Below are positions 6,803 to 48,644 of a stretch of DNA of 64,000 nt, in pieces. The notes under the pieces were generated by a model. The model was not told the DNA's origin. It ran no database searches and saw only the letters and a list, made by a program, of their open reading frames with translations. A program made the translations under genes and the position numbers. The stretch covers positions 38,433-102,432 of the forward strand of contig JBHOSQ010000004.1 in assembly GCA_042584585.1 (NCBI GenBank), written 5' to 3'. Each line of letters begins with the position of its first letter. The stretch's first letter is position 1. The DNA comes from an archaeon. Its GTDB lineage: Archaea > B1Sed10-29 > WALL01.

Positions 6803-6819
6803 TTAGCTACCCCTTTTAA

Positions 6820-6849
6820 GGGGGGCTGCGCCAATTGGCGCTGCCCCCC
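6820..6849. repeat. REP-like palindrome copy 1 (GGGGGGCTGCGCCAATTGGCGCTGCCCCCC)
   Basis: 30-bp inverted repeat with one mismatch, between divergent genes. Shares the GCCAATTGGC core with other copies. Confidence 0.85.
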
Positions 6850-6906
6850 AAGTTCATGATGTTTGGGCTAGTAGTTTTTTATATCCATAGATTGTATTCC
6901 AGCTTA

Positions 6907-8235
6907 ATGAAAAGGATTGCGGTAATGCTCTTGCTGCTCTTGGCTGTGGCCGCGGCAGAAGAGGTGTCACTGAACAGGGCTGCAACGCTCGCGGTCGTCG
7001 AGTACCCGGATTTGCAGGTCGCGCCGCAGAGCACGCCCGAGCAGCTGGCGGTCACGGAAACCGGGAGCTACTGGATAGTCGAGTTCGACCAGGTTTGGGT
7101 GCCCGTGACAAGTGAGGGCGCAGTGCTAAAGGAACAGGAAGAAGAAATCATTGCCGCGTACAAAGTGCACTACGCGCTCCAGACCGTGTCGGGCCAGCGG
7201 GAGACAAACCAGTACCCCACGGCGGAAGAAGACACACTCACTTTGCTGCTCGGGGACGTAGAAAACAAGGAGACTTACTTGGTTTCGTACAAGGCACAGC
7301 TGCCCACCGAGCTTCAGGACGAGGCAGACTCATTGGTTACTGCGGCACAGGGCTTGAAGGCGGCAATACAGTCATCACGGTCCTCGATAGTCGCGCTGAA
7401 GGCGACCGAGACATCATTGTTCTCGAGCAGGGCGAGCTATTCTGACTTCGGGTCGTGGCGCACGGAGTTCGGGGCCATGCTTGATTCACTGGGCGCGGTG
7501 GCGGAAACAGGGTACGCGTACGACGACGGCAGGACGGAGTTCAACCTGGCGGCGACTGCGTTCGTCGAGTCAAGCAACAACACGGCACAAAAGCAGCTCG
7601 TGCAGGCGTTCACGGGCGGCATCGCGATATCAAACATTCCGGGGTCGCTTCCGGGCCTGGAGAGCACGGTGAGCCAGTGGAAATCCAATTGGCTTGACGT
7701 GCAGCTCACCGACGAAAAAATCGGGGAGAACGCGGGAAGCGTTTACATTTTGTACCACGAGTTTTACAGCGGCGAGACGGTAACTGTGCTGCGGCAGGAG
7801 GCGTACTCCAAGGTGCAGGCACTGGCCGTGACCGTGCCGCTCATCCTTGGCGACTTAACGCAGTGCGAAGACAAGCTGACGCCGCGGGAACAGACCCAGC
7901 TCAACGATCTGGACGAGGCGTACACAAAGGCAACCGACGCGTACAACGAGGGCCGCGGATGTGAGACCGCGCTGGACGACGAGTGCGCGCGGACCGCGTA
8001 CCAGAACGCGGTTAGTTACTCCGAGGACGCGGCCGCCTTAGAGGGTGAATTGGGGGGAGCCGACTGCCCGAGCGCAACGCCGACCCCACAGCCAAACATT
8101 CTCGGGGATTTCCTTGGGTCTGTGTGGGGGATTGCATTCATTGGCCTCGTGGTTTTGCTGGTGGGGCTTTACTGGTGGAACAACCGGAAAAAGGAGGAGA
8201 CTTATGATGAAGGCGAGTACGTTCCTGATTGGTAG
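6907..8235 (+). CDS. Secreted, C-terminally membrane-anchored acidic helical protein
   Basis: Signal peptide MKRIAVMLLLLLAVAAA, PTPQP linker, C-terminal TM helix followed by NRKK. Confidence 0.75.
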   Translation: MKRIAVMLLLLLAVAAAEEVSLNRAATLAVVEYPDLQVAPQSTPEQLAVTETGSYWIVEFDQVWVPVTSEGAVLKEQEEEIIAAYKVHYALQTVSGQRETNQYPTAEEDTLTLLLGDVENKETYLVSYKAQLPTELQDEADSLVTAAQGLKAAIQSSRSSIVALKATETSLFSSRASYSDFGSWRTEFGAMLDSLGAVAETGYAYDDGRTEFNLAATAFVESSNNTAQKQLVQAFTGGIAISNIPGSLPGLESTVSQWKSNWLDVQLTDEKIGENAGSVYILYHEFYSGETVTVLRQEAYSKVQALAVTVPLILGDLTQCEDKLTPREQTQLNDLDEAYTKATDAYNEGRGCETALDDECARTAYQNAVSYSEDAAALEGELGGADCPSATPTPQPNILGDFLGSVWGIAFIGLVVLLVGLYWWNNRKKEETYDEGEYVPDW

Positions 8236-8926
8236 CCTGCTTCTGATGGCGGTGGCCTGCGCGGCTTCGCTGGATGTGGACAACAGGCACGTTTTCGAGG
8301 GCGAGGAGTTCACGGTCAAGTACACTGCGAGCGCTCCGCTGTCGCAGCAGGAAGTGTCAATCGCGTTCGCCGACCAGGAAAAGTCCATCACTTTGCCAAG
8401 CATGGCCGTGGGGACTTTTTCGACTACAATTGAGTTCACTGCCCCGCAAAGGGGGACGTATGAAGTCGTGTCCGGGGAAGCGAGGGCTGTGGTGGAAGTC
8501 GAGCCTGCGATGGTCGTGCTCGAGGACGTTCGGGTCGAGCCGTCAAGCGTGTCGCCGGGCGACTCGGTGCAGCTGAGCTACACAATCCGTAACGACGGCG
8601 ACGTAAAGGCTTACCACGTGAAGCGAAAAATCACAATAGCGAGTGACGCGTTCAGCTACAATTCCGAGGAAGACGAGCTGTACGGCGAGATGGGTCCCGG
8701 GGCAAGCCTCCACGAGGTCAAGGAAATCATGGCACGGGAAAGCGCTTCCGGCGACGTGAACATACAGCTTACTGTCAGTTACGAGTTCGACAACGAGGTG
8801 CACCGCCGCGAGGAATGGGTGCGGCTCGGCGTGTCGGCAATGGACTTGTGGATGGTCGCGGCTGTGCTCGTGGTTATTGCTGCTGCGGGGCTATTTTTCT
8901 CAAAGACCCAGCGGGCCGGCGAGTAA
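8204..8926 (+). CDS. Secreted Ig-like/CARDB-type protein with C-terminal TM anchor
   Basis: Signal peptide, beta-rich VEPSSVSPGDSVQLSYTIRNDG motif, C-terminal hydrophobic helix. Confidence 0.7.
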   Translation: MMKASTFLIGSLLLMAVACAASLDVDNRHVFEGEEFTVKYTASAPLSQQEVSIAFADQEKSITLPSMAVGTFSTTIEFTAPQRGTYEVVSGEARAVVEVEPAMVVLEDVRVEPSSVSPGDSVQLSYTIRNDGDVKAYHVKRKITIASDAFSYNSEEDELYGEMGPGASLHEVKEIMARESASGDVNIQLTVSYEFDNEVHRREEWVRLGVSAMDLWMVAAVLVVIAAAGLFFSKTQRAGE

Positions 8927-9484
8927 GCCGTCGCATTTGCCTGTGGCAAGCTGGGACTGGCCGCCGGTTATGGTGTAGAGGCAGTTCATTGTCATGCCCG
9001 GAGAGATTTCGGGGTTGGCTGAGGCGGTTGCCTTGACAAACACTTGGCAGTAGATTCCCTGGTCCGTTATTTCATAGGAATAGGCCATGCCACGGTAAGA
9101 GCTGGTGTATTTCCCGGCCGCACACTCAAGGGTTTTTTGGACGCAGAACGTGTCGTCGCCGCAGTCCGCGGGGCCGCCGGTGAGCTGGAAGGCAAGGAAT
9201 GCCACTACAGACAGGGCGGCAAGCACCGCGACAATCATCAAAAAGAGTTGTGGGAAATTGATTTCTTGTTTGGGCTTGGCGTAAAGCCTTGCCTCGGCAC
9301 GGGACACAATCTTTTCCGAGTCGCCGAAGCTGTAGCCCTGTTCCTTCAGCATGGCCTTAATTGTCTCGCGCTTTTTGCCTGAGCCGAGGAGCCCGGCGGC
9401 GTTGTCGATGACTGCCTTGCTGATTTCTTTTTTTGACGCTTCCTCTATGTCTCCGAACTGCGTCAAGTCGACTACTTCGCCCAT
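8900..9484 (-). CDS. Single-pass membrane hypothetical protein with Cys-rich extracellular domain
   Basis: One TM helix followed by 6 Cys (DCGDDTFC...). TATA-like TTTATAAA upstream. Confidence 0.7.
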   Translation of the reverse strand: MGEVVDLTQFGDIEEASKKEISKAVIDNAAGLLGSGKKRETIKAMLKEQGYSFGDSEKIVSRAEARLYAKPKQEINFPQLFLMIVAVLAALSVVAFLAFQLTGGPADCGDDTFCVQKTLECAAGKYTSSYRGMAYSYEITDQGIYCQVFVKATASANPEISPGMTMNCLYTITGGQSQLATGKCDGLLAGPLGL

Positions 9485-9517
9485 CGGGAAGATGATAAGC
9501 GGGAATAGTTTATAAAA

Positions 9518-10615
9518 TCAGCGCTTGAGGTGCAGCTCAAGGACATCGCCATCGACCAGGATGTGGTCTGCGCCCACGGTCTGCCCGTCGAAGCGGGCGC
9601 TCTTGCCCCAGACCTTGGCGTACTGGAAGCGCGTCGCCCACTCGCGCCGGATTTTTCTGCAGGCGCCGATGACGCGGTGGTCTTTTCTCTTGAGGATAAG
9701 GGGCTCTTTCATGTCCGGGGCATCGCCTATCTTCTTCATGTAGACACGGATAAGCCCAAGTAAGTGGAGTATTTCTTCGCGGAGGGCGTCGAGGTTCTCC
9801 GCGGTTTCGGCCGATACGAGGAGCGCGCCGCTGGCTTCTTTCTTCAGCGCCGCGAGCTCTTTTTTGTTGAGAGAATCGATTTTGTTGATGACGACCAGTG
9901 CCGGGACGTACTTTCGGTTGCCGGTGATTGCGTCGATGAGCTGGTCGATGGTGACGTCCTGCCGCATGACCACGTCCGCGTTGTGGATGCCGTACTCGTG
10001 AAAGATTTCTTTGGCGAATTTTTCGGTGAGGTGCGTGAGCTTGCACGACGCAACGAAGTGCACTCCCCCACTGATTTTTTTCCTTATCGTGACGTCGGGG
10101 GGATGTTCGTTGAGGCGGAGGTTCGCGATGTAGAGCTCGTCAAAAATGACTTTTAGCTGGCCCGGCTTGTCAATCAAGGCTAAGACAAGGTCCGCGTTGC
10201 GGACCACGCTGAGTATTTCCCTGCCGCGGCCCTTGCCTTCGGAAGCACCGCTGATGATCCCGGGGACGTCGAGCAGCTGGATTTTTGCGCCCTTGTACTG
10301 CATGAGCCCCGGGATGACGTTGAGGGTCGTGAACTCGTACGAGCCGACCTTGGACTCGGCGTTGGTTAGTTGGTTGAGGAGGGTTGACTTACCCACGGAC
10401 GGGAAGCCAACGAACAGCACGGTGGCGTCGCCCGTTTTCCTGACGGCGTAGGATGGGCCAGAGTGCGCTGATTTCTTGATGGCGAGCTCCTGGCCTTCCT
10501 TGAGCTTCGCTATTTTTGCCTTGACCAGGCCGATGTGGTGCTGCGTGCGCTTGTTGTACTTAGTGTTCTTCAGCTCTTCCTCGAGCTCCGCGATTTTTTC
10601 TGCTATTACGGCCAT
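9518..10615 (-). CDS. drg: DRG/OBG-family GTPase with TGS domain
   Basis: VGFPSVGKST, YEFTTL, LDVPG, INKID, C-terminal VWGKSARFDGQTVG. Confidence 0.92.
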   Translation of the reverse strand: MAVIAEKIAELEEELKNTKYNKRTQHHIGLVKAKIAKLKEGQELAIKKSAHSGPSYAVRKTGDATVLFVGFPSVGKSTLLNQLTNAESKVGSYEFTTLNVIPGLMQYKGAKIQLLDVPGIISGASEGKGRGREILSVVRNADLVLALIDKPGQLKVIFDELYIANLRLNEHPPDVTIRKKISGGVHFVASCKLTHLTEKFAKEIFHEYGIHNADVVMRQDVTIDQLIDAITGNRKYVPALVVINKIDSLNKKELAALKKEASGALLVSAETAENLDALREEILHLLGLIRVYMKKIGDAPDMKEPLILKRKDHRVIGACRKIRREWATRFQYAKVWGKSARFDGQTVGADHILVDGDVLELHLKR

Positions 10616-11115
10616 GCCCTGAACACCACTAGCTCCTCGGTCAGTATGGACGTGGAGGAAACGGTTTCGTATTCGTAGCCCAGCTCTCCAAGCACGGACT
10701 TCGTTTTGTCTGTGCCTGTAATCGAGCTCTGGACAAAGAGTATTTGCCCGCCCGGGGTTAAATAATGTTTTGCCTCGGCGAGGAATCGGTCCAGCAGCTC
10801 GCGGCCAGTGGGCCCACCGTCCAGCGCAAGCACGCGGGGCTCCTCGTCCGGGAGGTACGGGGGGTTGAAGATGATTGTGTCGAACTTTCCGTCGATGTTT
10901 TCGAACAAGTCGGACTGGATTGCGTTGATTCCTGCGGCCTTGGCGGCGGCAACGGCGCCGGTGTCGATGTCACAAGCAAGGGCCTCAAGGCCCAGCGCAA
11001 TGGCAGCGCGAGCCTGAATCCCGTTTCCCGTGCCGATGTCGAGGACCCTTCCGCGTGCGTAGCGCTTTACGGCTTGCTCGAGGAGGAGCGAGTCCTCCCT
11101 TGGCTCATATACCAT
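10606..11115 (-). CDS. HemK2/PrmC-family methyltransferase
   Basis: VYEPREDSLLL, LDIGTGNG, FNPPYLP, DGGPTG. Confidence 0.88.
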   Translation of the reverse strand: MVYEPREDSLLLEQAVKRYARGRVLDIGTGNGIQARAAIALGLEALACDIDTGAVAAAKAAGINAIQSDLFENIDGKFDTIIFNPPYLPDEEPRVLALDGGPTGRELLDRFLAEAKHYLTPGGQILFVQSSITGTDKTKSVLGELGYEYETVSSTSILTEELVVFRAWP

Positions 11116-11119
11116 GGCC

Positions 11120-11854
11120 TTACATCAGGGGGATGCTGCTGAAGGCGTTCAGCCCGAACAGCGTCGCAAAGATTGCGGAGAAGATAACAAGCACCACCAG
11201 TGCGGCAATGATTATGGCGCCTGATGGCAGCACGACCGCAACCCCCGCCTTGAGCATGTCGATTTGGTGGGCTTCCGCGGTCACCAGTATCTTCAGCCAT
11301 ACTGTGTAAAGCGCGAGCAGGAGGAGGATAAGAATCTCGCCCCAGCTGATTATGACTGCGAGTATCGGAAGGACTGGCATAAAGACTGCCGCCAGGAAGT
11401 TAAGCACGCCCAGGATGATGGCCGCGAATATCATGAAGACGGTAAGCGGGTAGCACATCATTCCGAAGTGCATGCCGTATTCGGACTTGCCGCCGAGTAG
11501 CTTGGCCATGCCCCAGATCATGCCGTACCAAACGATTGATATGATGATGAACGCCAGGATTACCGGGAGGAAGAGTATGACGTAGGCCATTATCGCAATG
11601 ATGGATGCGACAGCCGCCTCGACAACGACCTCGAGTGTCTTGCCGGTGAGCCATGCCACGAGTGAGCCGACCAATTGGCCGACCGCGAGCAGTAGCACGT
11701 TGATTAAGCCCGCCAAAAAGGCAAACAGCACCATAAGCTTTACGCCGTCGCCGAGGCTCGCCTTTCGGACAAGCCGCCGGGCACCCATTTGGGGCCGGAA
11801 AACCAGCATCCTAAAGTCAGTGAATTTTTCGTTGAAGAAACTAACCACGCCCAT
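11120..11854 (-). CDS. Yip1-family multi-pass membrane protein
   Basis: About 5 TM helices with an AKLLGGK motif. Confidence 0.65.
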   Translation of the reverse strand: MGVVSFFNEKFTDFRMLVFRPQMGARRLVRKASLGDGVKLMVLFAFLAGLINVLLLAVGQLVGSLVAWLTGKTLEVVVEAAVASIIAIMAYVILFLPVILAFIIISIVWYGMIWGMAKLLGGKSEYGMHFGMMCYPLTVFMIFAAIILGVLNFLAAVFMPVLPILAVIISWGEILILLLLALYTVWLKILVTAEAHQIDMLKAGVAVVLPSGAIIIAALVVLVIFSAIFATLFGLNAFSSIPLM

Positions 11855-11869
11855 ACGCATCTCCTGTGT

Positions 11870-12472
11870 TTACTTTTGTGCAATGGCGTTTAAAACCCTT
11901 TCGTGGTCAGAGCCCTCTCGGAGTATTTCGGGCGTGTCTCGGAGGTCGACGACGGTCGAGGACTCGCCAACTATCTCCCCGGCATCGATGTAAAGCTCGA
12001 CCAGGTCACCGAAGTAAGAAAAGGACTGCTCGGCCGTGGCCGCGGGCTCTTCGCCGGCCGGGTTCACGGAAGTTGCGGTGATTGGCTTGTTGAATGACTC
12101 GACTATTTCGGCCGCGAGGGGGTTCAGCGGAAGGCGGAACCCGATGCCGCTCGGCGAAAGGTTCCTTGCGAAGCCGCGGCCCTCGAGAATCACCGTGACT
12201 TTTCCGGGCAAAAGCTTTTTCAGGAGGGTTTCCTGCTCGGGGCTGACTTCAGAATATGCCTTTAGCATTCGGAAGCTTGAGACCATGACGCTGATTGGCT
12301 GTTCTGGGTCGCGCTTCTTCAGGGTGAAGATTTGCCGGACGCAGTCGTGGCGCGTGGCATCGGCGCCCAGGCCGTAGAGCGTGTCGGTGGGATAGACCGC
12401 CATCATCCCCTCCTCTAGCACAGAGACTGCCCTCTCGACTATTCCGGGTGAGTTTGCCTTGAGTATTGCCAT
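11870..12472 (-). CDS. sua5: L-threonylcarbamoyladenylate synthase (Sua5/YrdC)
   Basis: YPTDTLYGLGADA, LPGKVTVIL, PITATSVN, SSTVVD. Confidence 0.9.
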   Translation of the reverse strand: MAILKANSPGIVERAVSVLEEGMMAVYPTDTLYGLGADATRHDCVRQIFTLKKRDPEQPISVMVSSFRMLKAYSEVSPEQETLLKKLLPGKVTVILEGRGFARNLSPSGIGFRLPLNPLAAEIVESFNKPITATSVNPAGEEPAATAEQSFSYFGDLVELYIDAGEIVGESSTVVDLRDTPEILREGSDHERVLNAIAQK

Positions 12473-12483
12473 TGTCTCCCCTT

Positions 12484-13137: not shown

Positions 13138-13179
13138 AACGCCAACCATTATAAGGTGAGGGTATTTAAAGTTATCTCG

Positions 13180-13644: not shown

Positions 13645-13698
13645 TTGCCGAAGATACATACGGTAATTATTTAAAGCGACCCGTTCTAAACCCTCTCC

Positions 13699-14379: not shown

Positions 14380-14381
14380 AA

Positions 14382-15410: not shown

Positions 15411-15415
15411 TTGGC

Positions 15416-18967: not shown

Positions 18968-19006
18968 CGCGCTAGTTAAACCCAAGAAGCTTTATAAAGA
19001 TACGGT

Positions 19007-22180: not shown

Positions 22181-22206
22181 TGGTAGTGTTAAGGCAAGAA
22201 AGAGTA

Positions 22207-24306: not shown

Positions 24307-24828
24307 TTACTTCGCCTCCTCTTCTTCGACTGGAGCATCTTCTTTCCCAGAAGAACTAGAGGGGTCGCCAGTTGGCGACCCCTCTGTTGGAGTGTCCTGC
24401 TCTTCGGCTGGAGATTCTTCTGCTGCTTCAGCCTTTGGCGCCTTTGCCTTCTTTGCTTTCTTCGGCTTCTTCGATGCGGGCTTTGCCTTGGCTTTTTCCT
24501 TTTCTTCGTCTGCCTTGTCCTCTACATCGATTGCGGCGATGAGTTCTTCCTTGGTCGCGCCCTGGACCGCCCTCAGGCTGATTTTGCCGAGCCCGGTCTG
24601 TGGGACGTAAGCGCCGCCTGCCAGTTTAGTCTTGCACTTCGTGCACTGCCAGATGCCGTTGGAAACCCGCTTGAGCGAAAGCTTCCCGCACTGGGGGCAG
24701 TCGTGCTTGGCTTTGGACTTTACCTCTACCTTGCGCACGTTTTCACGGATTTTTCTTCCGTATCGTGAGCCGAACCTTCCGGCGACCCCGACTTTCTTCG
24801 TTTTCTTAGACTTTTTCTTTTGAACCAC
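24307..24828 (-). CDS. rpl37ae: 50S ribosomal protein L37Ae (eL43) with long low-complexity C-terminal extension
   Basis: GRFGSRYG, CPQC, GIWQCTKC, AGGAY, then a K/A/E-rich tail. Confidence 0.92.
   Translation of the reverse strand: MVQKKKSKKTKKVGVAGRFGSRYGRKIRENVRKVEVKSKAKHDCPQCGKLSLKRVSNGIWQCTKCKTKLAGGAYVPQTGLGKISLRAVQGATKEELIAAIDVEDKADEEKEKAKAKPASKKPKKAKKAKAPKAEAAEESPAEEQDTPTEGSPTGDPSSSSGKEDAPVEEEEAK
24358..24385. repeat. REP-like palindrome copy 2, inside the rpl37ae coding sequence
   Basis: AGAGGGGTCGCCA-GT-TGGCGACCCCTCT, near-identical to the copy at 47583. Confidence 0.85.
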
Positions 24829-34599: not shown

Positions 34600-34654
34600 A
34601 GGTTAGTTCAAAGCGGTATGGAATAAAAAAGAGTGCCTCTCTGAGCGAAAACTC

Positions 34655-34680
34655 GGGGTACCGCCAATTGGCTGTACCCC
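34655..34680. repeat. REP-like palindrome copy 3
   Basis: GGGGTACCGCCAATTGGCTGTACCCC, one mismatch, between co-directional genes. Confidence 0.8.
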
Positions 34681-34689
34681 TTAGTGACG

Positions 34690-37822: not shown

Positions 37823-37832
37823 TGAAATCACT

Positions 37833-39164: not shown

Positions 39165-39168
39165 TCAA

Positions 39169-39789
39169 TCACCCGGACGTTATTTTTTCGCCTTCTTCGT
39201 TTTTAATGATGGGCACAGCCACGATGTCTAGGGGCTGAAATCCCATTTCGGCACGCTTTTTGTTGATTAGCTCGGCGTTTGGCTTGGTTTCCTCGCTTAC
39301 CACGATGGTCTTGAACCTTGGGTCCAGCGCGAACCCGTAGGCGTCGCCTATTTTCCTGATTGTTGCCTCCCACCCCATTTCCGAGAGGAAGTGCTGGAGC
39401 CCGGCCTTTCGCTCGGCGAACGGTGGCACCCCGTGTTTCTTTCGAGAAGCGAACTTGTCGCTCGTCAAGCCGATTTCGACGGCTCCGCCGAGGGCAAACG
39501 CCATTGTAAGGAAGTGCTCGTGGCCCAGGTGGAGCTTGCTGAAGGTCCCGCCCAAACAAATCGTGGCTGGGGCTTTCGCAGAAGAACTGGGGGGGCCCAC
39601 AGGTGGACGTTGACTTGGGTCAACGTCAGGGGCAACCGGCCCCCCGGTTGACACTTGAGCTGGTTCCCCCAGTTGATCAGTTGACTCTGCGGTTTGAGCC
39701 GTTGTTTTCCCCATTGCCGCTGCTTTCTCTCGCTCCCGCTTTCGCCTCAATGCGCCCAATGGCTCCGGGGGGAGCACGACGGAAGTCAT
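39169..39789 (-). CDS. coaD: Phosphopantetheine adenylyltransferase with low-complexity N-terminal extension
   Basis: GGTFSKLHLGH (HxGH), GLTSD, IVVSEET, IN..R. Start overlaps the pyrH stop (ATGA). Confidence 0.82.
   Translation of the reverse strand: MTSVVLPPEPLGALRRKREREKAAAMGKTTAQTAESTDQLGEPAQVSTGGPVAPDVDPSQRPPVGPPSSSAKAPATICLGGTFSKLHLGHEHFLTMAFALGGAVEIGLTSDKFASRKKHGVPPFAERKAGLQHFLSEMGWEATIRKIGDAYGFALDPRFKTIVVSEETKPNAELINKKRAEMGFQPLDIVAVPIIKNEEGEKITSG
39585..39674. repeat. Compound (doublet-like) palindromic element, copy 4, inside the PPAT N-terminal extension
   Basis: Bounded by the AACTGGGGG/CCCCCAGTT inverted repeat. Internal stems GGGGGGCC/GGCCCCCC and GACGTTGAC/GTCAACGTC. Confidence 0.65.
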
Positions 39790-40454: not shown

Positions 40455-40509
40455 ACTAACACACCTCAGGGATTAAATACGCGGGACTATTATAAAAACG
40501 TGACTCGAA

Positions 40510-41700: not shown

Positions 41701-42770
41701 GGATAAAAGACACTCCTCAGGACTTTGTCGTGGAAGAAATAACTTCCAGCGGCGAGGTTCTGGAGGTTGGGAAAGAATACCCTTTTTCTGGGGGCGACGG
41801 GGAGAACTTGGTTTTTGTTTTGGAGAAGACCAATTGGGGCACAATGGGCGCGATGAAAGAATTGGGAAAGCGGCTGCATTGCTCGGAAAAGCGGCTTGGA
41901 TTCGCCGGAACCAAGGACCGGCGCGCCGTCACGGCACAGAGGTGCTCGGCGTGGAACGTGAAAAAAGAAGAGCTCGATAAAATAAGCATAAAAGACATTG
42001 CACTGAAGCCACTTCATTACGGCGAGCGCGTCGGGCTCGGTGACCTGCAGGGCAACCGGTTCACCATCACTGTGCGGGACTTTTCTGGCAAGGGAAAAAT
42101 GCCTGATAAGATTCCTAATTCGTTCGGCCCACAGCGGTTCGGTGGGCAAAGGCAAATCACTCACTTGGTTGGGAAAGCCATCGTCAACGGGCAGTTCCAC
42201 GACGCCGTCGACACTTATTTGTTTGGGACAATGGACGGCGACCCAAACCAGGAAGTGCGCGAAAAGTGCAAAGGCGATTACGCGCTAGCGATAAAGGAGT
42301 TTCCAATGCACTTAACGTACGAGCGGTCCATACTGGGTCACCTTGCGAAGAGTTCGAGCGACTATGTTGGTGCATTGCGCGCGCTGCCACGGAAATTGCT
42401 GGTCATGTTTGTGCACGCTTACCAGTCGGAGCTGTTCAACAAGGTTTTGAATAAACGGGGGCTGGAAAAGATGGATGGCGACTTGCTTGAGGGCGGCGTG
42501 CCGACTGGCCCGTTGTTCGGCACGAACTGTCCGCTCGCTTCGGGAGAGGCAGGCGAAATCGAGCGCGGGGTGCTGGAAAGCGAGTGGCTGGAGCTTAAGG
42601 ATTTCGAGGTCCACGGCATGCCTGACTTGACGAGCGAGGGAATGCGGCGGAAGCTGTGGGTGGAAGTAACTGATTTTGAAGTGCTCGAAAAAGGCAGTGA
42701 CTGGATAAAGGTTAGGTTTTCGCTGCCGAAGGGGAGTTACGCGACAACGGCATTGGACTACTTGGAGTAG
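41697..42770 (+). CDS. truD: tRNA pseudouridine(13) synthase TruD
   Basis: DFVVEE, AGTKDRRAVT, GNRFTI, FGPQRFG, LPKGSYAT. Confidence 0.94.
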   Translation: MRIKDTPQDFVVEEITSSGEVLEVGKEYPFSGGDGENLVFVLEKTNWGTMGAMKELGKRLHCSEKRLGFAGTKDRRAVTAQRCSAWNVKKEELDKISIKDIALKPLHYGERVGLGDLQGNRFTITVRDFSGKGKMPDKIPNSFGPQRFGGQRQITHLVGKAIVNGQFHDAVDTYLFGTMDGDPNQEVREKCKGDYALAIKEFPMHLTYERSILGHLAKSSSDYVGALRALPRKLLVMFVHAYQSELFNKVLNKRGLEKMDGDLLEGGVPTGPLFGTNCPLASGEAGEIERGVLESEWLELKDFEVHGMPDLTSEGMRRKLWVEVTDFEVLEKGSDWIKVRFSLPKGSYATTALDYLE

Positions 42771-42777
42771 ATGCCTC

Positions 42778-42801
42778 TGGGGGCGTCATTTGACGCCCCC
42801 A
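42778..42801. repeat. REP-like palindrome copy 5
   Basis: TGGGGGCGTCA-TT-TGACGCCCCCA followed by AGT, between convergent genes. Confidence 0.7.
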
Positions 42802-42836
42802 AGTCTACCGCGCCAGCTCAGGTTTGGGCTGTGATA

Positions 42837-43748
42837 CTACTGCTCTGGGATATCTGAAGTAGTGTCGTTTAAATCGGTTACGTTGCCAGTGACATTGCCC
42901 GTGACGTTTCCAACCATCACTTCTGGCGAGTCGAATGTGAGGTAAGGCACACCGATTTCCAGTAACTCCAGCATGGCGTCGATTGCTTTTTTGGCTTCGC
43001 CGCGCGCTGGCTGGATTTCAATTGTCGAGTTGCTGACGTAGACCTGCGTGGTGGGGTAGCTGGGGTGCCGCAGGATTATTGATGCCCGCTCGTCCATTTC
43101 CTGGAGGCACGCTTCCACGTTGAGGTTGGTCGCGTTCTCGTCGGTGCACGAGAGCCACTGGCCGTCTGTCTCGACGCCGTAGGTGTTTATGAGGATGCCT
43201 TCGGACGTTAACTTGGTTATCATGGGCACGAACGAGTTGATTGCTTCTCCGTTTCCTTCGTCTGGGTACGGCCGGACTTCAAAAAAGAAGTTGATTTTCC
43301 CGGAGTACGCCAGCTCAAGGGCTTTGTAGGTGGCGTCCCAGTAGTAGGAATAAAACAGAACGTCGTTGTACTCGTCGCCGAGGGCATTGTAGCCGACGAA
43401 TAAGCTTTGCGTTGTGTTGGATGTACGGTGGCCGTTCTCGTCGACGACGTATGCCTTGATTTGCTTTACGCCGATTTCGTCGTACGGCGAGACAAAGTAT
43501 TTGAAGAAGTACGTTGTGCCTTCCACGTGGTCGAACGTGGCGTTGCGGTCCGGCATAGCCACATATACTTCTGTGAGAGCTAGGGTGGAATCTATTTGAA
43601 TGGTCGCGTAGCCTGGTTGGGCTGGCTGGGGATAGGCGGACACGCTGAGCTCGGCGCGGGGGCTTTGGCTCGTGCCGAGGTACGCCGTGGCTGCGATTGA
43701 CGCGACGACTATGAGGGCGAGGAATATCCACTGCTTTTCTGCTTTCAT
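42837..43748 (-). CDS. Membrane-anchored extracellular protein (probable glycoprotein)
   Basis: N-terminal TM, many NxS/T sequons, C-terminal GNVTx3 repeat. Confidence 0.7.
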   Translation of the reverse strand: MKAEKQWIFLALIVVASIAATAYLGTSQSPRAELSVSAYPQPAQPGYATIQIDSTLALTEVYVAMPDRNATFDHVEGTTYFFKYFVSPYDEIGVKQIKAYVVDENGHRTSNTTQSLFVGYNALGDEYNDVLFYSYYWDATYKALELAYSGKINFFFEVRPYPDEGNGEAINSFVPMITKLTSEGILINTYGVETDGQWLSCTDENATNLNVEACLQEMDERASIILRHPSYPTTQVYVSNSTIEIQPARGEAKKAIDAMLELLEIGVPYLTFDSPEVMVGNVTGNVTGNVTDLNDTTSDIPEQ

Positions 43749-43812
43749 GCTGTTCACTATGCTCGTTCTAAAATAAAAAGGAAAGGGGACTAATGTCCCC
43801 TTCTCCGGGTTC

Positions 43813-46329
43813 TTAAAGGGCTTTGATAGCCGCAATGAGGCTGTCGACTTCTGCAGCCGTGTCCGAAGCAGTGTAACCTGCAACGTACAAGGTGCTTCCG
43901 TCCAGCTCAGTCATCTTAGCGCCAGCCGAAGTCAAAGCCTCTGTCTTGCCGACAGCGAGGTTGTTGACATAGTGGCCGCCGATAACGATGGCGTTGCCGG
44001 TCGGGTTGGTCGAGTCACTCACAACAAGGCTACCAGAGACAGTACCGAAGGTAACTCCGGTCGCAACAGCGTCCACGTCACATGTGAGGTCGCTCACAAT
44101 TACGTCCGAGGTGACGTCATATGGGAACGTCTTGTCGGTCGTAACGGTGAAAGCATTCTCAGAAACGCTTTCTGTCTCGGAGACACCAGGTACCAAAGTA
44201 ACCCTAAGCTTCGCGTCTTCCTTGAAGGCCTTGACTTCCAAAGTGTTGGCGTCAGTTGCCTCTAGGTTAGCGTAGCCAAGCTCGTGGTAGGTGTACCTGT
44301 CCTCAGATGCCTTCTCTTGGTTCTGGTCCACGTAGGTTGTAGCCACAGCAGCGTCGGTTGCCTTGATTCCTTCGTAGTTGGCAGACTTCGCGTAGGTGTA
44401 GGTGTGTCCTGGTCTTCCGGTGGCCAGTTTGAAGTTTGCCGACAACGCCGTGTTGTTCTCGTAGGCATAGCCGTGCGACATTCCTGTGGTGGTGCCTGAG
44501 CCGTTGGTCCAGTTCCAGACTGGGTTGGTCCAGGTCAAGTTGTAGTAGTCACTTGACACGTTGTTGTCTGCGCCGCTGATGACGTAAACCACGTCGTCAG
44601 TGCCGTACGACATAAAGTCGCCGGACGTCAAGGCAAATTGCACGGTCTGCGAACCCTGGTTGGTGCTAACGGAGATTCCGGTAGCAGCAGACAGGATGAT
44701 GTTCGAGGTCGCTGCACTTGCATTGTTGAAACCAAGGTACCATGGTCCATAAGTCGCGTTGGGCCAGTTAGCTACCATCTGCAGGTCACCAACTTGGTTT
44801 GCCTGTGTCACGTTGCGGTGTCCCGTGAACGAATACTCGATAGCCGAGGCCGCTCCAGGTGTCTTTAGCTTCACGTAACTGTTGTCCAGGTCGCCGGACT
44901 TGTAGTAAACCGACTCCAGCCTGAGAGGTTGCTCATTCAGGAAGAAGAAGTCGCCCGCCTTCAGTGGAAGGTAACCTGGTTCAATTGCAGTGATGTTGCT
45001 AAAGTTCGAGTTCTGGACAATAGCGCCATCCGTGGTGTTCGCTAGGAACGCGTTGGTTCTGTAGTCAGTGTCGTCCCACATCTCGAAGGTGTACTGGTTC
45101 TCATAGGTGTCGCTGTACGTAACTTCGTCAATGACATACCGCTCGCTGGACTCAGTTCCGTGGAGGGTAAATGTGTCCACTTCGATTTCACCGCGGTCCG
45201 CGTTGGTGCCCGCATAGTTAATCGTAAAGTAGTCCTTGGGGCCAGTTATGGCTGTCATCTGGTCGTTCTTGGCGTAGTTCTTGTTCAGGTAGACGTCAAT
45301 CTTGTCGGTGTTGGGTGCGACGTTCGTGATGTCGACCTTCCAAATGTCGCTGCCGGGGAACTTGTCGTTGTCAACAAGCTTCAGCAATTCGCCGCCTACG
45401 CGGAGTGTTGCCGAACCACCCTGGCCAGGCGTGTAAGACTTCTGCACTGACTGCAGGTACGTGTAGAACCCGCTTGTCGTTGCGTCTTGGTTGTTGCCTG
45501 TGTCGAGCTGCGTCGTGACCGCGCTGGTCAAGTCGCCGCCAGTTACAGTAACAGTTGCGTAACCAGTGTTGGGGGTCGTGGTTTCGTCCAGGCTTGCGCT
45601 GTCTAGCGTCACCGTATAGGTGTTGTCGCTGATAACAACGTCACTGCTCTGGCCGATTCCCAGGCTGACCTTCTCGCCCTTAACAAGATGAACTTCGTTT
45701 GCGGTTATCTTGTTGATGACGTAGTTGCTGCCGAGGAACTTGATCTCAACAGTCTGGTTCAGCTTGCTGTCAGAGTACGGGAAGTTCTTGATGAAATCAA
45801 GCGTGTACTTGATTCTCTTGCTTCCTGTGCCCTCCAGGTAGACTCCGTGGAAGTCCTTGTCCTCTTCGTACTTGAGATTCACGGCGTTGCTGACGGAAAC
45901 ACTTTCCTTGTAGTCGTATTCTGCGTTCTGGAAAGTAAACGTTCCTTTGTGCATTCCGTGTGCTTCTCCAAGGGTCAAGGTGTTCACCGTTTCGGTGATG
46001 GTTCCACCAGCTTCTGTCTTGTCCATGTACGTTCCTTCTGTCGGAACCGCAGACGATCCACTAATCTTCAGTTTGACGGTGCCCATTGCATCGGGGGTGA
46101 CAGAGCCACCTGCCTCGATGTACGCCTTGTTACCGATAACTGCCGCGAGCTTAGCCGCCGCAATACCGTCGGAAATCATGGCGTCGCCACCGACAACGAT
46201 CTGAACATTCGTGTTGCCGCTTGCGTCCCAATAAAAGTCCTTTGTTGGCAGCGCAGCTAGAGCCGCGCCGACAAGCAAAGCAGTACCTGCCGCCACAGCA
46301 GCTGCTTTCTTTATATTTAGAGACTTCAT
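43813..46329 (-). CDS. S-layer protein (Methanococcales/DPANN type)
   Basis: Signal peptide; N-domain IVVGGDA..SDGIAA; C-domain AIVIGGHYVN..LYVAGYTASDT; many sequons; strong codon bias. Confidence 0.85.
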   Translation of the reverse strand: MKSLNIKKAAAVAAGTALLVGAALAALPTKDFYWDASGNTNVQIVVGGDAMISDGIAAAKLAAVIGNKAYIEAGGSVTPDAMGTVKLKISGSSAVPTEGTYMDKTEAGGTITETVNTLTLGEAHGMHKGTFTFQNAEYDYKESVSVSNAVNLKYEEDKDFHGVYLEGTGSKRIKYTLDFIKNFPYSDSKLNQTVEIKFLGSNYVINKITANEVHLVKGEKVSLGIGQSSDVVISDNTYTVTLDSASLDETTTPNTGYATVTVTGGDLTSAVTTQLDTGNNQDATTSGFYTYLQSVQKSYTPGQGGSATLRVGGELLKLVDNDKFPGSDIWKVDITNVAPNTDKIDVYLNKNYAKNDQMTAITGPKDYFTINYAGTNADRGEIEVDTFTLHGTESSERYVIDEVTYSDTYENQYTFEMWDDTDYRTNAFLANTTDGAIVQNSNFSNITAIEPGYLPLKAGDFFFLNEQPLRLESVYYKSGDLDNSYVKLKTPGAASAIEYSFTGHRNVTQANQVGDLQMVANWPNATYGPWYLGFNNASAATSNIILSAATGISVSTNQGSQTVQFALTSGDFMSYGTDDVVYVISGADNNVSSDYYNLTWTNPVWNWTNGSGTTTGMSHGYAYENNTALSANFKLATGRPGHTYTYAKSANYEGIKATDAAVATTYVDQNQEKASEDRYTYHELGYANLEATDANTLEVKAFKEDAKLRVTLVPGVSETESVSENAFTVTTDKTFPYDVTSDVIVSDLTCDVDAVATGVTFGTVSGSLVVSDSTNPTGNAIVIGGHYVNNLAVGKTEALTSAGAKMTELDGSTLYVAGYTASDTAAEVDSLIAAIKAL

Positions 46330-46344
46330 TCTTTTTTTCACCTC

Positions 46345-46425
46345 ATGCATCTGTAAAAAGATTTACATCAAGGGAAGAGCAAGAGCCCTACCCTTGGTGA
46401 GCATAAATCACACTTCATTTATAAA
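46345..46425 (-). promoter_or_regulatory. S-layer promoter (TTTATAAA at 46418-46425) and structured 5' UTR
   Basis: TATA box, two hairpins, then a GAGGTG SD before the ATG. Confidence 0.6.
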
Positions 46426-46567
46426 GATTTCGCCTATTTATCGTCATTTTACGAATATTTAGACCTAAACAAAGTGATGTTGGGTTGATGGATTTAGGGT
46501 TATAAAAGGCTATTTAAAGGTCTTTGGAATCTCCTTTAAACGCCCTTGAACTCCTCTTTAAAGACCC

Positions 46568-47203
46568 TCATTTAATGAAAACTTCCTTGCTGTTCTCGCG
46601 GTATTTCCGCAAAGCAAGGTCTTTCTGGACCAATGTGCTGGCATAGCTGTGGAGCACCGAAGCCACGTCCATGAGGATGCCCTGGGCCTCACTGGGGTCG
46701 ACAACGTACTCTTCCATTGGCTCCAGCTCAATCGAGGACGGCCCGTACGTCAAAACGAAGTAAACCATGTCCTCAAGCCGCTTAGAAGCAATATCCACCT
46801 CAAACAGGTTGGTGTATACCCCTTCTTCCTTGACCACCTCGTCCTTCTGGACATTGGTGACTGTCACGATATTGTCCTTGGCCATTTGGCCCATTAAGTG
46901 CGTCGTGGCGTCCTCCAAAGCCTTTTTGTCCTTTGACTGGCCCTCGATTATCGCGTGCGCCCTGAAAACTTGTGCTGCTGTCGGCTTTTCGCCCATAATT
47001 CCTCGCCTCACTGAATCTACTGCCCGGTACTTCGTGGGATAGCCACCCAATTTTTCGACTGTCTTTAGCTTAATCAGCTTCGCCAAGTCGCCCTCTACTT
47101 CGTGGAGCGGCAGGCCGAGCTCTTCGCGCAGCTCTTTCGCTGTCTTTCCGTCTTCGACTAAAGCCTTTGCAATCTTGGCCTGGTTGCGGCTAAACCCGGG
47201 CAT
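46568..47203 (-). CDS. N-terminal winged-HTH fused to a conserved uncharacterised archaeal domain
   Basis: KTAKELREELG...LAKLIKLKTV wHTH; YGPSSIEL.P C-terminal motif. Confidence 0.65.
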   Translation of the reverse strand: MPGFSRNQAKIAKALVEDGKTAKELREELGLPLHEVEGDLAKLIKLKTVEKLGGYPTKYRAVDSVRRGIMGEKPTAAQVFRAHAIIEGQSKDKKALEDATTHLMGQMAKDNIVTVTNVQKDEVVKEEGVYTNLFEVDIASKRLEDMVYFVLTYGPSSIELEPMEEYVVDPSEAQGILMDVASVLHSYASTLVQKDLALRKYRENSKEVFIK

Positions 47204-47239
47204 AGGGCTTTTTATAATTGGGTTTGTTTAAAAACGATT

Positions 47240-47536
47240 ATGGTAAATCCCGCGAACTTCACGGCTCCCGCCATCAGTTTCTACGAGCCCAGTGGCCTAA
47301 TCGTGATGATCATCGGGGTAGTTCTCATAGTAGCCGCGTTCTACGTGTTCTTTAAAATAATCAAGAACGTCATCGCCAACGCCATAATCGGTGGAATCGG
47401 CTTAATCGTGCTGCACTTCGTCGCACCACACGTCGGCGTCAACATCCCCATCGACTTGATAAACATCATCATCGCCATCATCGGAGGGCTGCCGGGCCTC
47501 GCCATCATACTCGTTTTCAGCCTCTTTGGGCTCTAA
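47240..47536 (+). CDS. BofA-like small membrane protein
   Basis: 3 TM helices; NAIIG, IPID, IGGLPG. Confidence 0.7.
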   Translation: MVNPANFTAPAISFYEPSGLIVMIIGVVLIVAAFYVFFKIIKNVIANAIIGGIGLIVLHFVAPHVGVNIPIDLINIIIAIIGGLPGLAIILVFSLFGL

Positions 47537-47582
47537 ACAACCAAAACCCATAGCCGCAAGGCTAGCCACAACACTATGCTTA

Positions 47583-47608
47583 GGGGGGTCGCCAATTGGC
47601 GACCCCCC
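47583..47608. repeat. REP-like palindrome copy 6 (perfect, 26 bp)
   Basis: GGGGGGTCGCCAATTGGCGACCCCCC, between convergent genes. Confidence 0.88.
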
Positions 47609-47639
47609 ATATGGTAAAGCTAGGGCTGGTTCAAGAAAA

Positions 47640-48644
47640 CTACTTAAAAACGCCCGCAATCTTCGTGCCGCACGCGTGGCATTTCTTCTTGTGCACGTGG
47701 TCTTCCAGCAGCGAAAACCCGTGCCGCTTAATCAAAAGCTCTCCACAGTTCGGGCACACCGTGTTCTCGAACGGGTCGCCAGGATACGTGTTCCCGCAGT
47801 AAACATAGTTCACCCCGACATCAAGCGCGATTGCGTGTGCGCGGGCCAATTTGTCCCGCGTCGTCGGCAACACGTTCCGCATCTTGTGCTGCGGGAAAAA
47901 CGCGCTGAAGTGAAGGGGCATGTTCGGGTCAAGGTCATGCACGAACTCCGAGATTTGCAGGATGGACGCCTCGTCGTCGTTGTACCCCGGAATGATTAGG
48001 TTGGTCACCTCGACCCAGACCTTTTTCTTTTTCAGGAGCTTGATTGACTCAAGCACGTGCTCCAACTCAATGCCGCCGCACACTTTTTTGTAAAACTCTT
48101 CGTCGCCTTTTATGTCGACGTTCGCGGCATTCAGTTGCTTGTAGTCCTTAATCATTTCCTTGGTCATGTAGCCGTTCGTGACGAACACGTTCTTGATTTT
48201 CTTTTCTTTTGCGAGCACGCTCGTGTCCTTCGCGTACTCGTAAAAAATGGTTGGCTCTGTATATGTATAACTAATGCTGGGCGTCTCGTACTCGCCCGCG
48301 AGGCGCACGACCTCGGCCGGCGGAATCTCGCGCTGGGGGCCCGCCTCCCACGCCGCTTGGCTGATTTGCCAGTTCTGGCAGTGCGCACAATGGAAGTTGC
48401 ACCCCACCGTCGCGATGCTCAGGGACTGAGTGCCGGGCAGGAAGTGGAACAACGGCTTTTTCTCGATTGGGTCGACGTTGATTGAGCACGGCTTGGCGTA
48501 CGTCATTGCGTACAATGTGCCGCGGATGTTCTCGCGGATTTGGCAATTGCCCCTCCCGCTCTCGGGAATGTGACACCGCCGGTTGCACAATTGGCAGTCA
48601 ACCGCCTTTTCCGCGGCTTTTTTGTACAAGTAAGCCTCTTTCAC
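47640..48644 (-). CDS. AmmeMemoRadiSam-system radical SAM enzyme (PFL-activase-like)
   Basis: DPIEKKPLFHF, GCNFHCAHCQNW, YTYTEPT, C-terminal CPNC..CHAC. Confidence 0.9.
   Translation of the reverse strand: MKEAYLYKKAAEKAVDCQLCNRRCHIPESGRGNCQIRENIRGTLYAMTYAKPCSINVDPIEKKPLFHFLPGTQSLSIATVGCNFHCAHCQNWQISQAAWEAGPQREIPPAEVVRLAGEYETPSISYTYTEPTIFYEYAKDTSVLAKEKKIKNVFVTNGYMTKEMIKDYKQLNAANVDIKGDEEFYKKVCGGIELEHVLESIKLLKKKKVWVEVTNLIIPGYNDDEASILQISEFVHDLDPNMPLHFSAFFPQHKMRNVLPTTRDKLARAHAIALDVGVNYVYCGNTYPGDPFENTVCPNCGELLIKRHGFSLLEDHVHKKKCHACGTKIAGVFK

Follow-up and report, generated by a model that had tools for sequence, protein, structure and literature searches.

Dispersed hairpins of a very small archaeon as probable gene-less insertion modules of a single Iainarchaeum-like genus

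What are the GC-clamped palindromes scattered over this 64-kb stretch of archaeal DNA (hereafter the window), and what could have dispersed them? The window is part of the 1.017-Mb assembly of G000, which together with G001 and G002 represents one Iainarchaeum-like genus (g1) of DPANN, very small archaea. The preliminary description had read six related hairpins as an archaeal REP/MITE-like system. Inspection of the sequence found all six in place, and their folding as single-stranded DNA yielded energies of -9.6 to -20.4 kcal/mol, with 0 or 1 of 200 shuffles per site folding equally well (z of -5.56, -6.85, -3.85, -3.45, -3.78, and -6.09 for sites 6820, 24358, 34655, 39585, 42778, and 47583, respectively). 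The GCCA(A/G)TTGGC core recurs in four hairpins (6830-6839, 24366-24375, 34665-34674, 47593-47602), the stems vary while staying paired (single internal mismatches in 6820 and 34655), and five of the six sites carry an NAGT foot, 47583 being the exception. Divergent (6820), tandem (34655), convergent (42778, 47583), and intragenic (24358, 39585, both with open frames) contexts were likewise as described. The six do not, however, form a single related family, as had been assumed: the hairpin at 39606 belongs to a different one, and that at 42778 is part of a two-hairpin unit.

Table 1. Hairpin modules in the window and their surroundings
Position	Strand	Feature	Surroundings
6820..6849	.	Solo G-clamped hairpin GGGGGGCTGCGCCAATTGGCGCTGCCCCCC, foot AAGTTC	SpoU-methylase start (minus, 6802) on one side, TTTTTTATAT box on the other
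24358..24385	.	Hairpin AGAGGGGTCGCCAGTTGGCGACCCCTCT	Within ORF 24307..24828 (minus)
34655..34680	.	Solo hairpin GGGGTACCGCCAATTGGCTGTACCCC, one mismatch	Between THUMP-gene stop (34690, minus) and promoter box of next minus-strand gene
39589..39645	.	Composite: outer G-clamp GGGGGGCC...GGCCCCCC (39590-39597 / 38-45) around family-B hairpin	Disordered N-terminal extension of cytidylyltransferase-like ORF 39169..39789 (minus)
39606..39627		Family-B hairpin GACGTTGAC-TTGG-GTCAACGTC	Inside the G-clamp composite
42771..42832	+	Full two-hairpin unit: ATGCCTCT, hairpin 1 (42779-42800), AAGTCTACCGCGC, hairpin 2 (42814-42831)	Fills the gap between TruD stop (42768-42770) and the convergent ORF's stop (42837-42839)
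47583..47608	.	Solo hairpin GGGGGGTCGCCAATTGGCGACCCCCC, without NAGT foot	Between convergent BofA-like (plus) and radical-SAM (minus) genes

Across the G000 assembly we counted 25 G4-clamped perfect hairpins (stem of at least 8, loop of at most 6) versus 0-4 (mean 0.7) in 20 dinucleotide-preserving shuffles of the 1.017 Mb, which bears out the enrichment over shuffled sequence. Of these 25 hairpins, 13 have AGT, on one strand or the other, no more than 2 nt from the clamp, compared with 7.4% of 20,000 random positions. The palindromes sort into three module types, which we think are probably gene-less, genus-restricted, very small insertion elements. In type A, GCCTMT and WAGTCY border the two sides of a hairpin with a G/C clamp, whose centre is often of the CCAATTGG type. 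Type B is the hairpin GACGTTGAC-YCAA-GTCAACGTC (general form GACGTTGAC-N4-GTCAACGTC), present in G000 at 20 sites (18 perfect stems). Type C is a unit of ~60 nt that joins an A-like variable hairpin 1 by an AAGYCTA-ACGTGCC linker to a conserved hairpin 2 (AGCTKAGTTTMAGCT); it has about 24 copies, one of which includes window site 42778 as its hairpin 1. Hairpin 1 folds in all 36 units analysed despite 34 distinct sequences (mean -17.6 versus -7.9 kcal/mol for shuffled sequence), while hairpin 2 covaries between T-A and G-C (16 versus 15 copies) and has CAGCT/AGCTG changed to CGGCT/AGCCG with pairing kept. Rfam 15 gave no match in the window at gathering score, and a search of 20 loci at E<=1 returned nothing beyond tRNAs and chance matches below threshold.

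All module types are restricted to the single Iainarchaeum-like genus. The unit core occurs in three of 41 genomes, all of genus g1 (G000, n = 21; G002, n = 19; G001, n = 2), and a search of about 185,000 species genomes added one with the exact core. The A-type pattern matched 51 times in G000, 82 times in G002, and never in G001; five of the other 38 genomes had one or two matches each, all non-palindromic. Family B, with its 20 sites in G000 versus one in G002, represents a species-specific burst.

The sister species differ in their copy sets, and comparison of orthologous loci revealed presence and absence of modules together with target duplications, in line with the earlier idea of a mobile repeat. 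G000 is empty at loci where G002 carries a composite insert of ~170 nt behind a tRNA, with the tRNA 3' end repeated after it (L008), a unit at the T-loop of tRNA-Arg with 16 nt of duplicated 3' end (L071), or solo modules (L074, L069). It is also empty at L092, where a unit at a tRNA forms a gene-less insert of 65 nt flanked by a perfect duplication of 14-15 nt, and at L094, where a 730-nt insert has a unit at one end. The hairpin at 34655 is lacking in G001, and the same junction in G002 holds a 1.06-kb inserted gene with a ~30-nt imperfect duplication; the G002 ortholog of site 42771 holds an element that is rearranged but starts identically, bordered by 18 nt imperfectly duplicated from the 3' end of TruD; and the 47583 junction in G002 contains a G6-clamped hairpin whose inner stem is different, together with a full unit that has a decayed duplication of ~87 nt on its flanks. 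The composite at 39589 is specific to G000, with unrelated sequence at that place in G002 and G001.

Target duplications ranged from about 10 to 87 nt (10, 13, 13, 14, 29; 18; 16; 14-15; about 87). Direct repeats of at least 10 nt flank 5 of 25 units versus 37 of 2000 random positions; the 20 units lacking such a repeat count against insertion, as does the scarcity of duplicated tRNA 3' ends (3/45 versus 19/881 controls). Older hairpins were themselves targets, since at L076 and L082 half of one is kept downstream of the new module. Modules are shown to enter tRNA ends (at the T-loop/T-stem junction), stop-codon ends, disordered coding tails, and older copies. As the target stretch is duplicated on insertion, the interrupted gene end remains intact. 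The wide spread of duplication lengths leaves room for repair of breaks by the host with no dedicated enzyme involved.

The tRNA loci raise the alternative that the hairpins are scars of tyrosine-integrase elements, larger elements that entered tRNA genes or gene ends, restored their target, lost their interior, and left att-proximal hairpins behind. The tRNA 3' ends are indeed restored with the older copy pushed outward (L008, L071), the displaced copy at L071 resembles the G000 sequence more than the working tRNA does, and Phage_integrase genes (PF00589) occur in G001, adjoining tRNA-Ser, and in G002. Such scars would nevertheless have to account for dozens of different targets, each with its own duplication, and for the L092 insert, which is only 65 nt long and gene-less with a perfect duplication. 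No tyrosine recombinase was found in G000, the integrase genes of G002, G001, and G005 have no hairpin closer than about 1.5 kb, and G005 has an integrase and none of the modules. We therefore regard this origin as quite unlikely.

Some copies persist at orthologous sites, where double changes keep the pairing, including non-synonymous ones in a coding tail. G002 has the 6820 hairpin at the orthologous position, with a G-C pair replaced in compensatory fashion by A-T; G001 lacks it. That at 24358 encodes GSPTGDP in the C-terminal tail, rich in K, E, and A, of ribosomal protein L37ae; it is retained in G002 with GGGTC/GACCC changed to GAGTC/GACTC, and the tail in G001 is short and without hairpin. 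Because orthologously fixed copies with conserved structure would also be compatible with a motif that is purely functional, we considered an RNA 3'-end, terminator, or processing hairpin, or a protein operator, spread without dedicated mobility. Its case is strengthened by position, with 16 of 27 G-clamp hairpins at most 60 nt from where an ORF of at least 80 aa terminates, five near tRNAs, and 12 of the 20 family-B sites no farther than 120 nt from a tRNA whose orientation their loop shares; T-G pairs in a hairpin-2 variant moreover fit RNA on one particular strand. Filled and empty sites with target duplications, nested copies, in-frame intragenic copies, and the lack of an Rfam match make it unlikely as a full explanation. 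Archaeal termination depends on oligo-T, and a T4 run lies within 12 nt of only 6 of the 27 G-clamp hairpins versus 8% of random positions, which speaks against a terminator role, while the variability of the stems argues against a single sequence-specific DNA-binding protein.

If the modules are insertion elements, an enzyme should move them, and the window has no gene for one. Six MAG-like genomes of the family were searched for Y1_Tnp, reverse transcriptase (RVT_1), and Cas1, and G000 also for DDE_Tnp_1 and tyrosine recombinases. The Y1/HUH transposase suggested in the preliminary description did not appear: PF01797, which covers RAYTs as well, was found in none of the six genomes including G000, an absence that falls short of proof because the assemblies are 84-98% complete, whereas the control was positive in 6 of 14 known genomes. 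RVT_1 and Cas1 (PF01867) were equally absent from the six 84-98% complete genomes, DDE_Tnp_1 from G000, and a parent insertion sequence from the genomes searched. A single TnpB-type match (PF07282) in G000, the C-terminal zinc ribbon of a 283-aa protein, was rejected at 21.7 bits in six-frame translation and 18.9 bits as an ORF (cut-off 26.3). Derivation from IS200/IS605 (PATE-type MITE) was dismissed on this sub-threshold match and the missing Y1 gene; a classical DDE-type MITE on the missing DDE_Tnp_1 in G000, the absence by eye of terminal inverted repeats, and duplications of about 10-87 nt; and a casposon-derived identity on the lack of Cas1 in all six genomes and of an inverted repeat joining the ends of the L092 insert (by eye).

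These searches bear directly on the proposal that a Y1 HUH nuclease encoded elsewhere cuts and moves the hairpins as single strands, in the manner of REP/RAYT or IS200/IS605. GC-rich hairpins whose short conserved foot is enriched have a REP-like architecture, and the modules cluster and nest like bacterial REPs in BIMEs (PMC2817692). Against it stand the failure to detect PF01797 and the 10-87-nt target duplications; the part of PMC6006769 used here records only IS200-type Y1 proteins in Archaea. The palindromes do have a foot, AGTC-like (WAGTC) rather than of the GTAG or CGTC type named for REPs in the title of PMC3733652. HUH single-strand transposition is not known to make target duplications. 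This mechanism thus appears very improbable here. What stands of the archaeal REP/MITE-like system is its dispersed, lineage-specific, and MITE-like character, the foot motif, and the insertions; the HUH mechanism is not supported.

Non-autonomous hairpin insertion modules moved by a putative trans-acting enzyme are the reading that we favour, with somewhat better than even confidence. The enzyme would recognise the folded hairpin and its AGTC foot and nick both strands with a stagger that is roughly 13-18 nt and at times far larger; the duplication would then arise by fill-in repair. Such nicking and fill-in would resemble the behaviour of a casposase-like integrase and not that of an HUH transposase. 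After insertion, selection on structure may retain the hairpin, which could serve as an RNA 3'-end or as an insulating hairpin between tightly packed genes. More speculatively, and only as a tentative idea, the modules might belong to a new archaeal DNA-insertion system, in which a new integrase or nuclease would read hairpin and foot and insert bare modules and hairpin-led cassettes at tRNA T-arms, gene ends, and older hairpins, the staggered nicks restoring the gene. One lead to such an enzyme is a Cas4-like PD-(D/E)XK nuclease, confined within the family to the two element-rich genomes, with cassettes accumulating next to it. If true, the system would be, in DPANN archaea with reduced genomes, a counterpart in function to integrons and casposons.

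The cassettes invite comparison with integrons, in which the two-hairpin unit would be an attC-type folded recombination site bounding gene cassettes. In both, a folded-DNA site keeps its structure while its sequence varies, and same-strand unit arrays with about 0.4-5 kb spacing bound small ORFan genes in an ORFan and defence island (C6). Integron sites carry RYYYAAC and GTTRRRY motifs, which GCCTAAC and its complement fit. In folding, however, the unit forms two separate hairpins in place of one R''/R' bulged hairpin, and its GTTAGGC stretch is unpaired; no integron-type integrase lies beside the C6 arrays, and PF00589 was not found in G000; and most unit copies are solitary at gene ends. 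The units also have target duplications, which integron insertion is not known to make. An integron-like identity is accordingly highly improbable.

Among other known systems, REP/BIME and REPIN elements with their RAYTs share short GC-rich hairpins in tens of copies, a conserved short flanking motif, a mostly extragenic position at gene ends, clustered or mosaic arrangement, lineage specificity, and persistence over speciation; the archaeal modules differ in their target duplications, the lack of a Y1/HUH gene in six genomes, a second conserved hairpin, cargo-bearing forms, and in-frame intragenic copies. MITEs and non-autonomous prokaryotic transposons are likewise tiny, gene-less, and multi-copy, with target duplications, presence/absence between close relatives, and species-specific bursts, but the modules have neither terminal inverted repeats nor a fixed duplication length nor a parent IS in the genomes searched. 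For casposase, integration at the TpsiC-loop of a tRNA target duplicates 15 bp, and outliers span 3 to 1802 bp, according to the portion of PMC5137440 considered here. The modules resemble this in their target at the tRNA TpsiC-loop or 3' end, in duplications of about 14-16 nt at tRNAs with far longer outliers elsewhere, and in seemingly directional integration at tRNA 3' ends, where seven 3'-end copies compared by eye all have the same orientation; they differ from casposons in being 40-120 nt rather than several kilobases long, without Cas1 (0/6 genomes), terminal inverted repeats, or polymerase cargo. The MITE-like C/D-box sRNA copies of Pyrobaculum calidifontis, as far as the portion of PMC6009581 used here describes them, differ from the two-hairpin unit, which lacks C/D boxes and has no match in Rfam, and share with it the multiplication of a small structured archaeal element within one species or genus.

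The palindromes are real, enriched over chance, genus-restricted and structurally constrained, and they arrive by insertion with target duplication. All six hairpins of the preliminary description are present in the window and fold as single-stranded DNA at -9.6 to -20.4 kcal/mol (z-scores of -3.45 to -6.85 against 200 dinucleotide shuffles). Four of the six carry the GCCA(A/G)TTGGC centre, and the variety of contexts claimed for them is borne out with gene calls that are longest-ORF approximations. The window is archaeal, as it encodes exosome subunits, the RNase P proteins Pop5 and p30, aRF1, L37ae, GINS and both primase subunits. The assembly containing it (G000) has a size of 1.017 Mb on 32 contigs, a G+C content of approximately 55% and a completeness of 84%. 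Counting only perfectly paired hairpins with a G4 clamp (stems of 8 or more, loops of 6 or fewer), we obtained 25 in this assembly vs 0-4 (mean 0.7) in 20 dinucleotide-preserving shuffles of all contigs. The NAGT foot likewise held up: 13 of the 25 have an AGT that starts, on one strand, 0-2 nt from the clamp, compared to 7.4% of 20,000 random positions. Among the solo hairpins, 6820, 24358 and 34655 have a WAGT foot in common and 47583 is without it; the clamp occurs in all four. Avoidance of CAATTG as a restriction site gave no signal (238 observed vs about 190 expected from base composition), and Rfam returned no family in the window and none in 20 element-bearing loci at E<=1.

Hairpins of the window and their orthologous sites in the sister genomes G002 and G001
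Window position	Context or type	G002	G001
6820	between divergent genes	same hairpin, G-C to A-T double change	none
24358	inside open reading frame	kept, GGGTC/GACCC to GAGTC/GACTC	none
34655	between tandem genes	1.06-kb gene at same junction, flanked by ~30-nt imperfect duplication	minimal junction
39585	inside open reading frame		
39589-39645	only in G000	absent	absent
39606-39627	family B hairpin, enclosed by outer G-clamp		
42778	between convergent genes		
42771-42832	window copy of two-hairpin unit	element with same ATGCCTCT start, directly 3' of TruD stop	
47583	between convergent genes	G6-clamped hairpin with another inner stem, plus full unit	

The view that these hairpins form one related family stood in part: the solo hairpins share the G clamp and, 47583 excepted, the foot, but there are three related modules rather than a single family. 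The assembly scan yielded 96 perfect hairpins with a stem of at least 9 and, besides the G/C-clamped solo hairpins (A-type), a second abundant palindrome with a YCAA loop, GACGTTGAC-N4-GTCAACGTC (family B). The third module is a unit of about 60 nt with the order GYCTCT, hairpin 1, AAGYCTA, ACGTGCC and hairpin 2 (AGCTKAGTTTMAGCT), and many G-clamped hairpins are its hairpin 1. G000 has 25 unit matches, of which C3:22708 is probably false. Hairpin 1 has three flank classes and many sequences; folded copy by copy, since MAFFT and RNAalifold gave no structural alignment of it, it forms in all 36 aligned units from G000 and a sister genome (34 distinct sequences, mean -17.6 vs -7.9 kcal/mol for shuffles). 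Hairpin 2 is conserved yet covarying, with one pair divided between T-A (16 copies) and G-C (15 copies), and CAGCT/AGCTG changed to CGGCT/AGCCG in other copies. Many solo hairpins elsewhere in the genome have a GCCTMT left flank, e.g. GGCCTATG-hairpin-TAGTCCTT, and the link of solo CCAATTGG-type palindromes to the two-hairpin unit is a newly drawn connection. Per megabase-sized genome, the genus carries approximately 24 two-hairpin units, 20 family B hairpins and some 20 solo G-clamp hairpins. A further palindrome type, GTCTTCGRC-N3-GYCGAAGAC, has at least five copies in G000 (C3:50577, C4:12405, C7:58457, C8:33085 and C8:33163), and a different repeated module, TGGCTACCCTGGGAAGCC-N-CACCCCCTCAGTAA, is found alongside hairpins that follow tRNA genes in G000 and G002 (G000:C2:121705-121740; loci L004, L006, L007 and L008).

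Beyond G000, an exact match to the unit core is present in a single species genome among approximately 185,000, a Candidatus Iainarchaeum archaeon MAG (DPANN) with 14 copies. With up to two mismatches it was found in 3 of 41 related genomes, all of genus g1 (G000, n = 21; G002, n = 19; G001, n = 2), and in none of the 38 others, three further genera of the same family included; these are incomplete, MAG-like assemblies and kin genomes are not independent. Viral contigs gave no match to the core. The A-type pattern GGGG..CARYTG..CCCC has 51 matches in G000, 82 in G002 and none in G001, with overlapping registers counted, and outside the genus 5 of 38 genomes have one or two non-palindromic hits each; within the genus, which has three species, the solo palindromes are confined to two. 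For family B, G000 has 20 sites, 18 of them perfectly paired in the stem, and G002 has one. This is a burst in the G000 lineage; G001 and the related genome G005 have one non-palindromic hit with two mismatches each, and the other 36 genomes none. Twelve of the 20 sites lie within 120 nt of a tRNA gene; tRNA genes with such margins make up about 1.4% of the assembly. At distances up to about 35 nt the YCAA loop is oriented as the tRNA.

Around the window, synteny extends to G002 with 73-83% and to G001 with 65-73% nucleotide identity, and copies differ between the three genomes at orthologous sites, as the presence/absence comparison suggested in the preliminary description revealed. In the element at the G002 TruD site, the first hairpin is decayed, hairpin 2 is degenerate and an additional G-clamp hairpin is nested. 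On either side of the element lies a copy of 18 nt of the TruD 3' end, the duplication being imperfect and its second copy now ending the convergent gene. The G002 unit at the 47583 site is flanked by a decayed copy of about 87 nt of a radical-SAM gene 3' end. The G002 gene at the 34655 site is a 328-aa ORFan without Pfam family, seen in G002 only, between the THUMP and GTPase genes (C19 ~44230-45260; L057:482-1468, minus strand), and it has no hairpin unit beside it. In the reverse comparison we considered 18 A-type G002 sites among the matches listed, a non-random set in which both flanks of 10 map within 1.5 kb in G000. At these ten, G000 is empty at three (L069, L071, L074), has the same hairpin at two (L072, L073), has a hairpin with a different inner stem at three (L068, L076, L082) and is related in a complex way at two (L083, L084); of the remaining eight, seven were unclassified and L070 lies against a G000 hairpin located at the end of a contig. 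The copy sets have turned over since the split of G000 and G002. Immediately downstream of the newer module at L076 and L082, the older hairpin is still represented by its 3' half, and hence new modules insert into old ones. Three head-to-tail starts of the same module (GGCCTA-GGGGGG...) are seen at L073 (G002:C3 ~70560-70660), only the last being a complete hairpin, as if successive insertions had each split the previous hairpin near its loop.

Base-level alignment shows that the unit at L071 was inserted at the T-loop region of tRNA-Arg and that a 16-nt copy of the tRNA 3' end was pushed outward. A composite insert of about 170 nt at L008 has a tRNA in front of it and a copy of that tRNA's 3' end after it; in the G000 counterpart the tRNA runs straight into the promoter of its neighbour. 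The insert at L092, on a metagenome contig about 80% identical to G000, comprises 65 nt and includes a unit; it interrupts a tRNA where T-loop and T-stem join and is accompanied by a perfect duplication of 14-15 nt, the G000 site being empty. At L094 an insert of 730 nt, with a unit at one of its ends, stands in place of 8 nt in G000. Genome-wide, abutting direct repeats flank 5 of the 25 G000 units (10, 13, 13, 14 and 29 nt) and none were found at 20, compared to repeats of at least 10 nt at 37 of 2000 random positions with the same geometry; tRNA-end duplication is weak (3/45 vs 2.2% in controls). Apart from the insert, tRNA-Arg(GCG) of G002 (L071, G002:C2 ~5100-5170) differs from G000:C3:19394-19468 by an insertion of about 31 nt in the anticodon-side half, which may be an intron, and by paired changes in the acceptor and T stems. 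A tRNA-like 3' end (GGGTTCAAATCCCTACGACCCCACC) is located outside the window on the minus strand of G000:C4 ~11780-11870, a contig on which a default ARAGORN run called no tRNA.

Hairpins 6820 and 24358 keep their pairing in G002 through double substitutions while neighbouring intergenic sequence is barely alignable, although such cases are few. Hairpin 24358 is translated as GSPTGDP in G000 and ESPTGDS in G002 within the long K/E/A-rich tail of L37ae, and neither compensating change is synonymous, suggesting that the constraint acts at the level of nucleic-acid structure rather than the peptide. This C-terminal tail of L37ae (24307-24828, minus strand) has about 85 aa in G000, is longer in G002 and short in G001. 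One G002 hairpin at L073 and its counterpart in G000 share 25 identical nt between flanks of 78-86% identity. Of 27 G-clamp hairpins, 16 are no more than 60 nt away from the 3' end of an ORF with 80 aa or more. Archaeal termination is held to rely on oligo-T; a T4 run is present within 12 nt of only 6 of 27 G-clamp hairpins (8% at random positions), so that they are not typical oligo-T terminators, in line with the earlier remark that they are not simply terminators. A rule for unit orientation relative to protein-gene ends is at most tentative: ORFs of at least 200 aa end 0-5 nt from the hairpin-2 side in six units and from the hairpin-1 side in one (another at 8 nt), small ORFs being unreliable here. 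The elements remodel tRNA flanks and set overlapping gene ends apart; they are also found in frame within coding tails and at the head of small gene cassettes.

Searches of six genomes of the family recovered neither RVT_1 (reverse transcriptase) nor Cas1 in any of them. DDE_Tnp_1 was above the cut-off in G004 only, which is without elements, and Phage_integrase was found in G001, G002 and G005 and not in G000. Hairpin modules were not found within about 1.5 kb of the tyrosine-integrase loci of G002, G005 and G001, G005 has the integrase and no elements, and blastn of the whole G002 integrase locus showed no similarity to G000. A partial tyrosine-integrase gene lies at a contig end of G001 adjoining a tRNA-Ser(GCT) region (L090, G001:C33:1-1847); G000 has the tRNA and neighbours and no match to the integrase part. 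A weak TnpB-like hit covered the zinc ribbon only and was rejected. A Cas4-like PD-(D/E)XK nuclease (C6:22920-24068) adjoining the unit array on contig C6, present within the family only in G000 and G002 (81% identity) and with 35% identical homologues in four distant genomes, is a lead only as candidate enzyme. The array lies in a low-GC (50%) island (G000:C6:1-24000; L015, L016) with eight same-strand two-hairpin units and 29 of 33 ORFs without Pfam family, which also encodes a Fic protein, a type IIG restriction-methylase fusion and this nuclease. Short copies of the first ~30 codons of the nuclease gene are seen at C6:7360-7434 and 10227-10313, and small N-terminal nuclease fragments in G019 and G031. 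The idea that the gene is a general cassette-stacking site was dropped, as 20 kb upstream of the 35% identical homologue in G035 contained no gene-start copies.

DPANN genomes are tiny, tightly packed and thought to be poor in mobile elements. New here are the occurrence of the solo palindromes in just two of the species, the family B burst, the nesting into older hairpins, the in-frame coding copies and the compensatory changes at orthologous sites. Discovery of an enzyme would add a new pathway by which archaea insert DNA and capture genes; if none exists, the elements would show host repair alone spreading structured DNA. The family is also a natural setting in which to ask whether strong archaeal hairpins act as insulators or mark RNA 3' ends.

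For Iainarchaeota and the remaining DPANN archaea, the searchable literature yielded no published account of repeats of this kind, and the accessible text of the archaeal-integron preprint (10.1101/2022.02.06.479319) has no occurrence of "Iainarchaeota". The proposed REP/RAYT system is not supported, on two grounds: no Y1 gene (Y1_Tnp, PF01797, IS200 and RAYT) was found in the six genomes of the family searched, and target duplications are present. Y1 proteins in Archaea are of the IS200 type only in the part of PMC6006769 available, and PMC3733652 does not mention archaea outside its reference list. MITE-like copies of C/D-box sRNAs in Pyrobaculum calidifontis are described in the available part of PMC6009581. 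A trans-acting enzyme would recognise the hairpin and its foot and make staggered nicks. As Cas1 was not found in the six genomes, the comparison that follows means "works like" and not membership: the nearest behavioural analogue may be the casposase, whose duplications, according to the accessible portion of PMC5137440, measure 15 bp at a tRNA TpsiC-loop target and from 3 to 1802 bp when off target.
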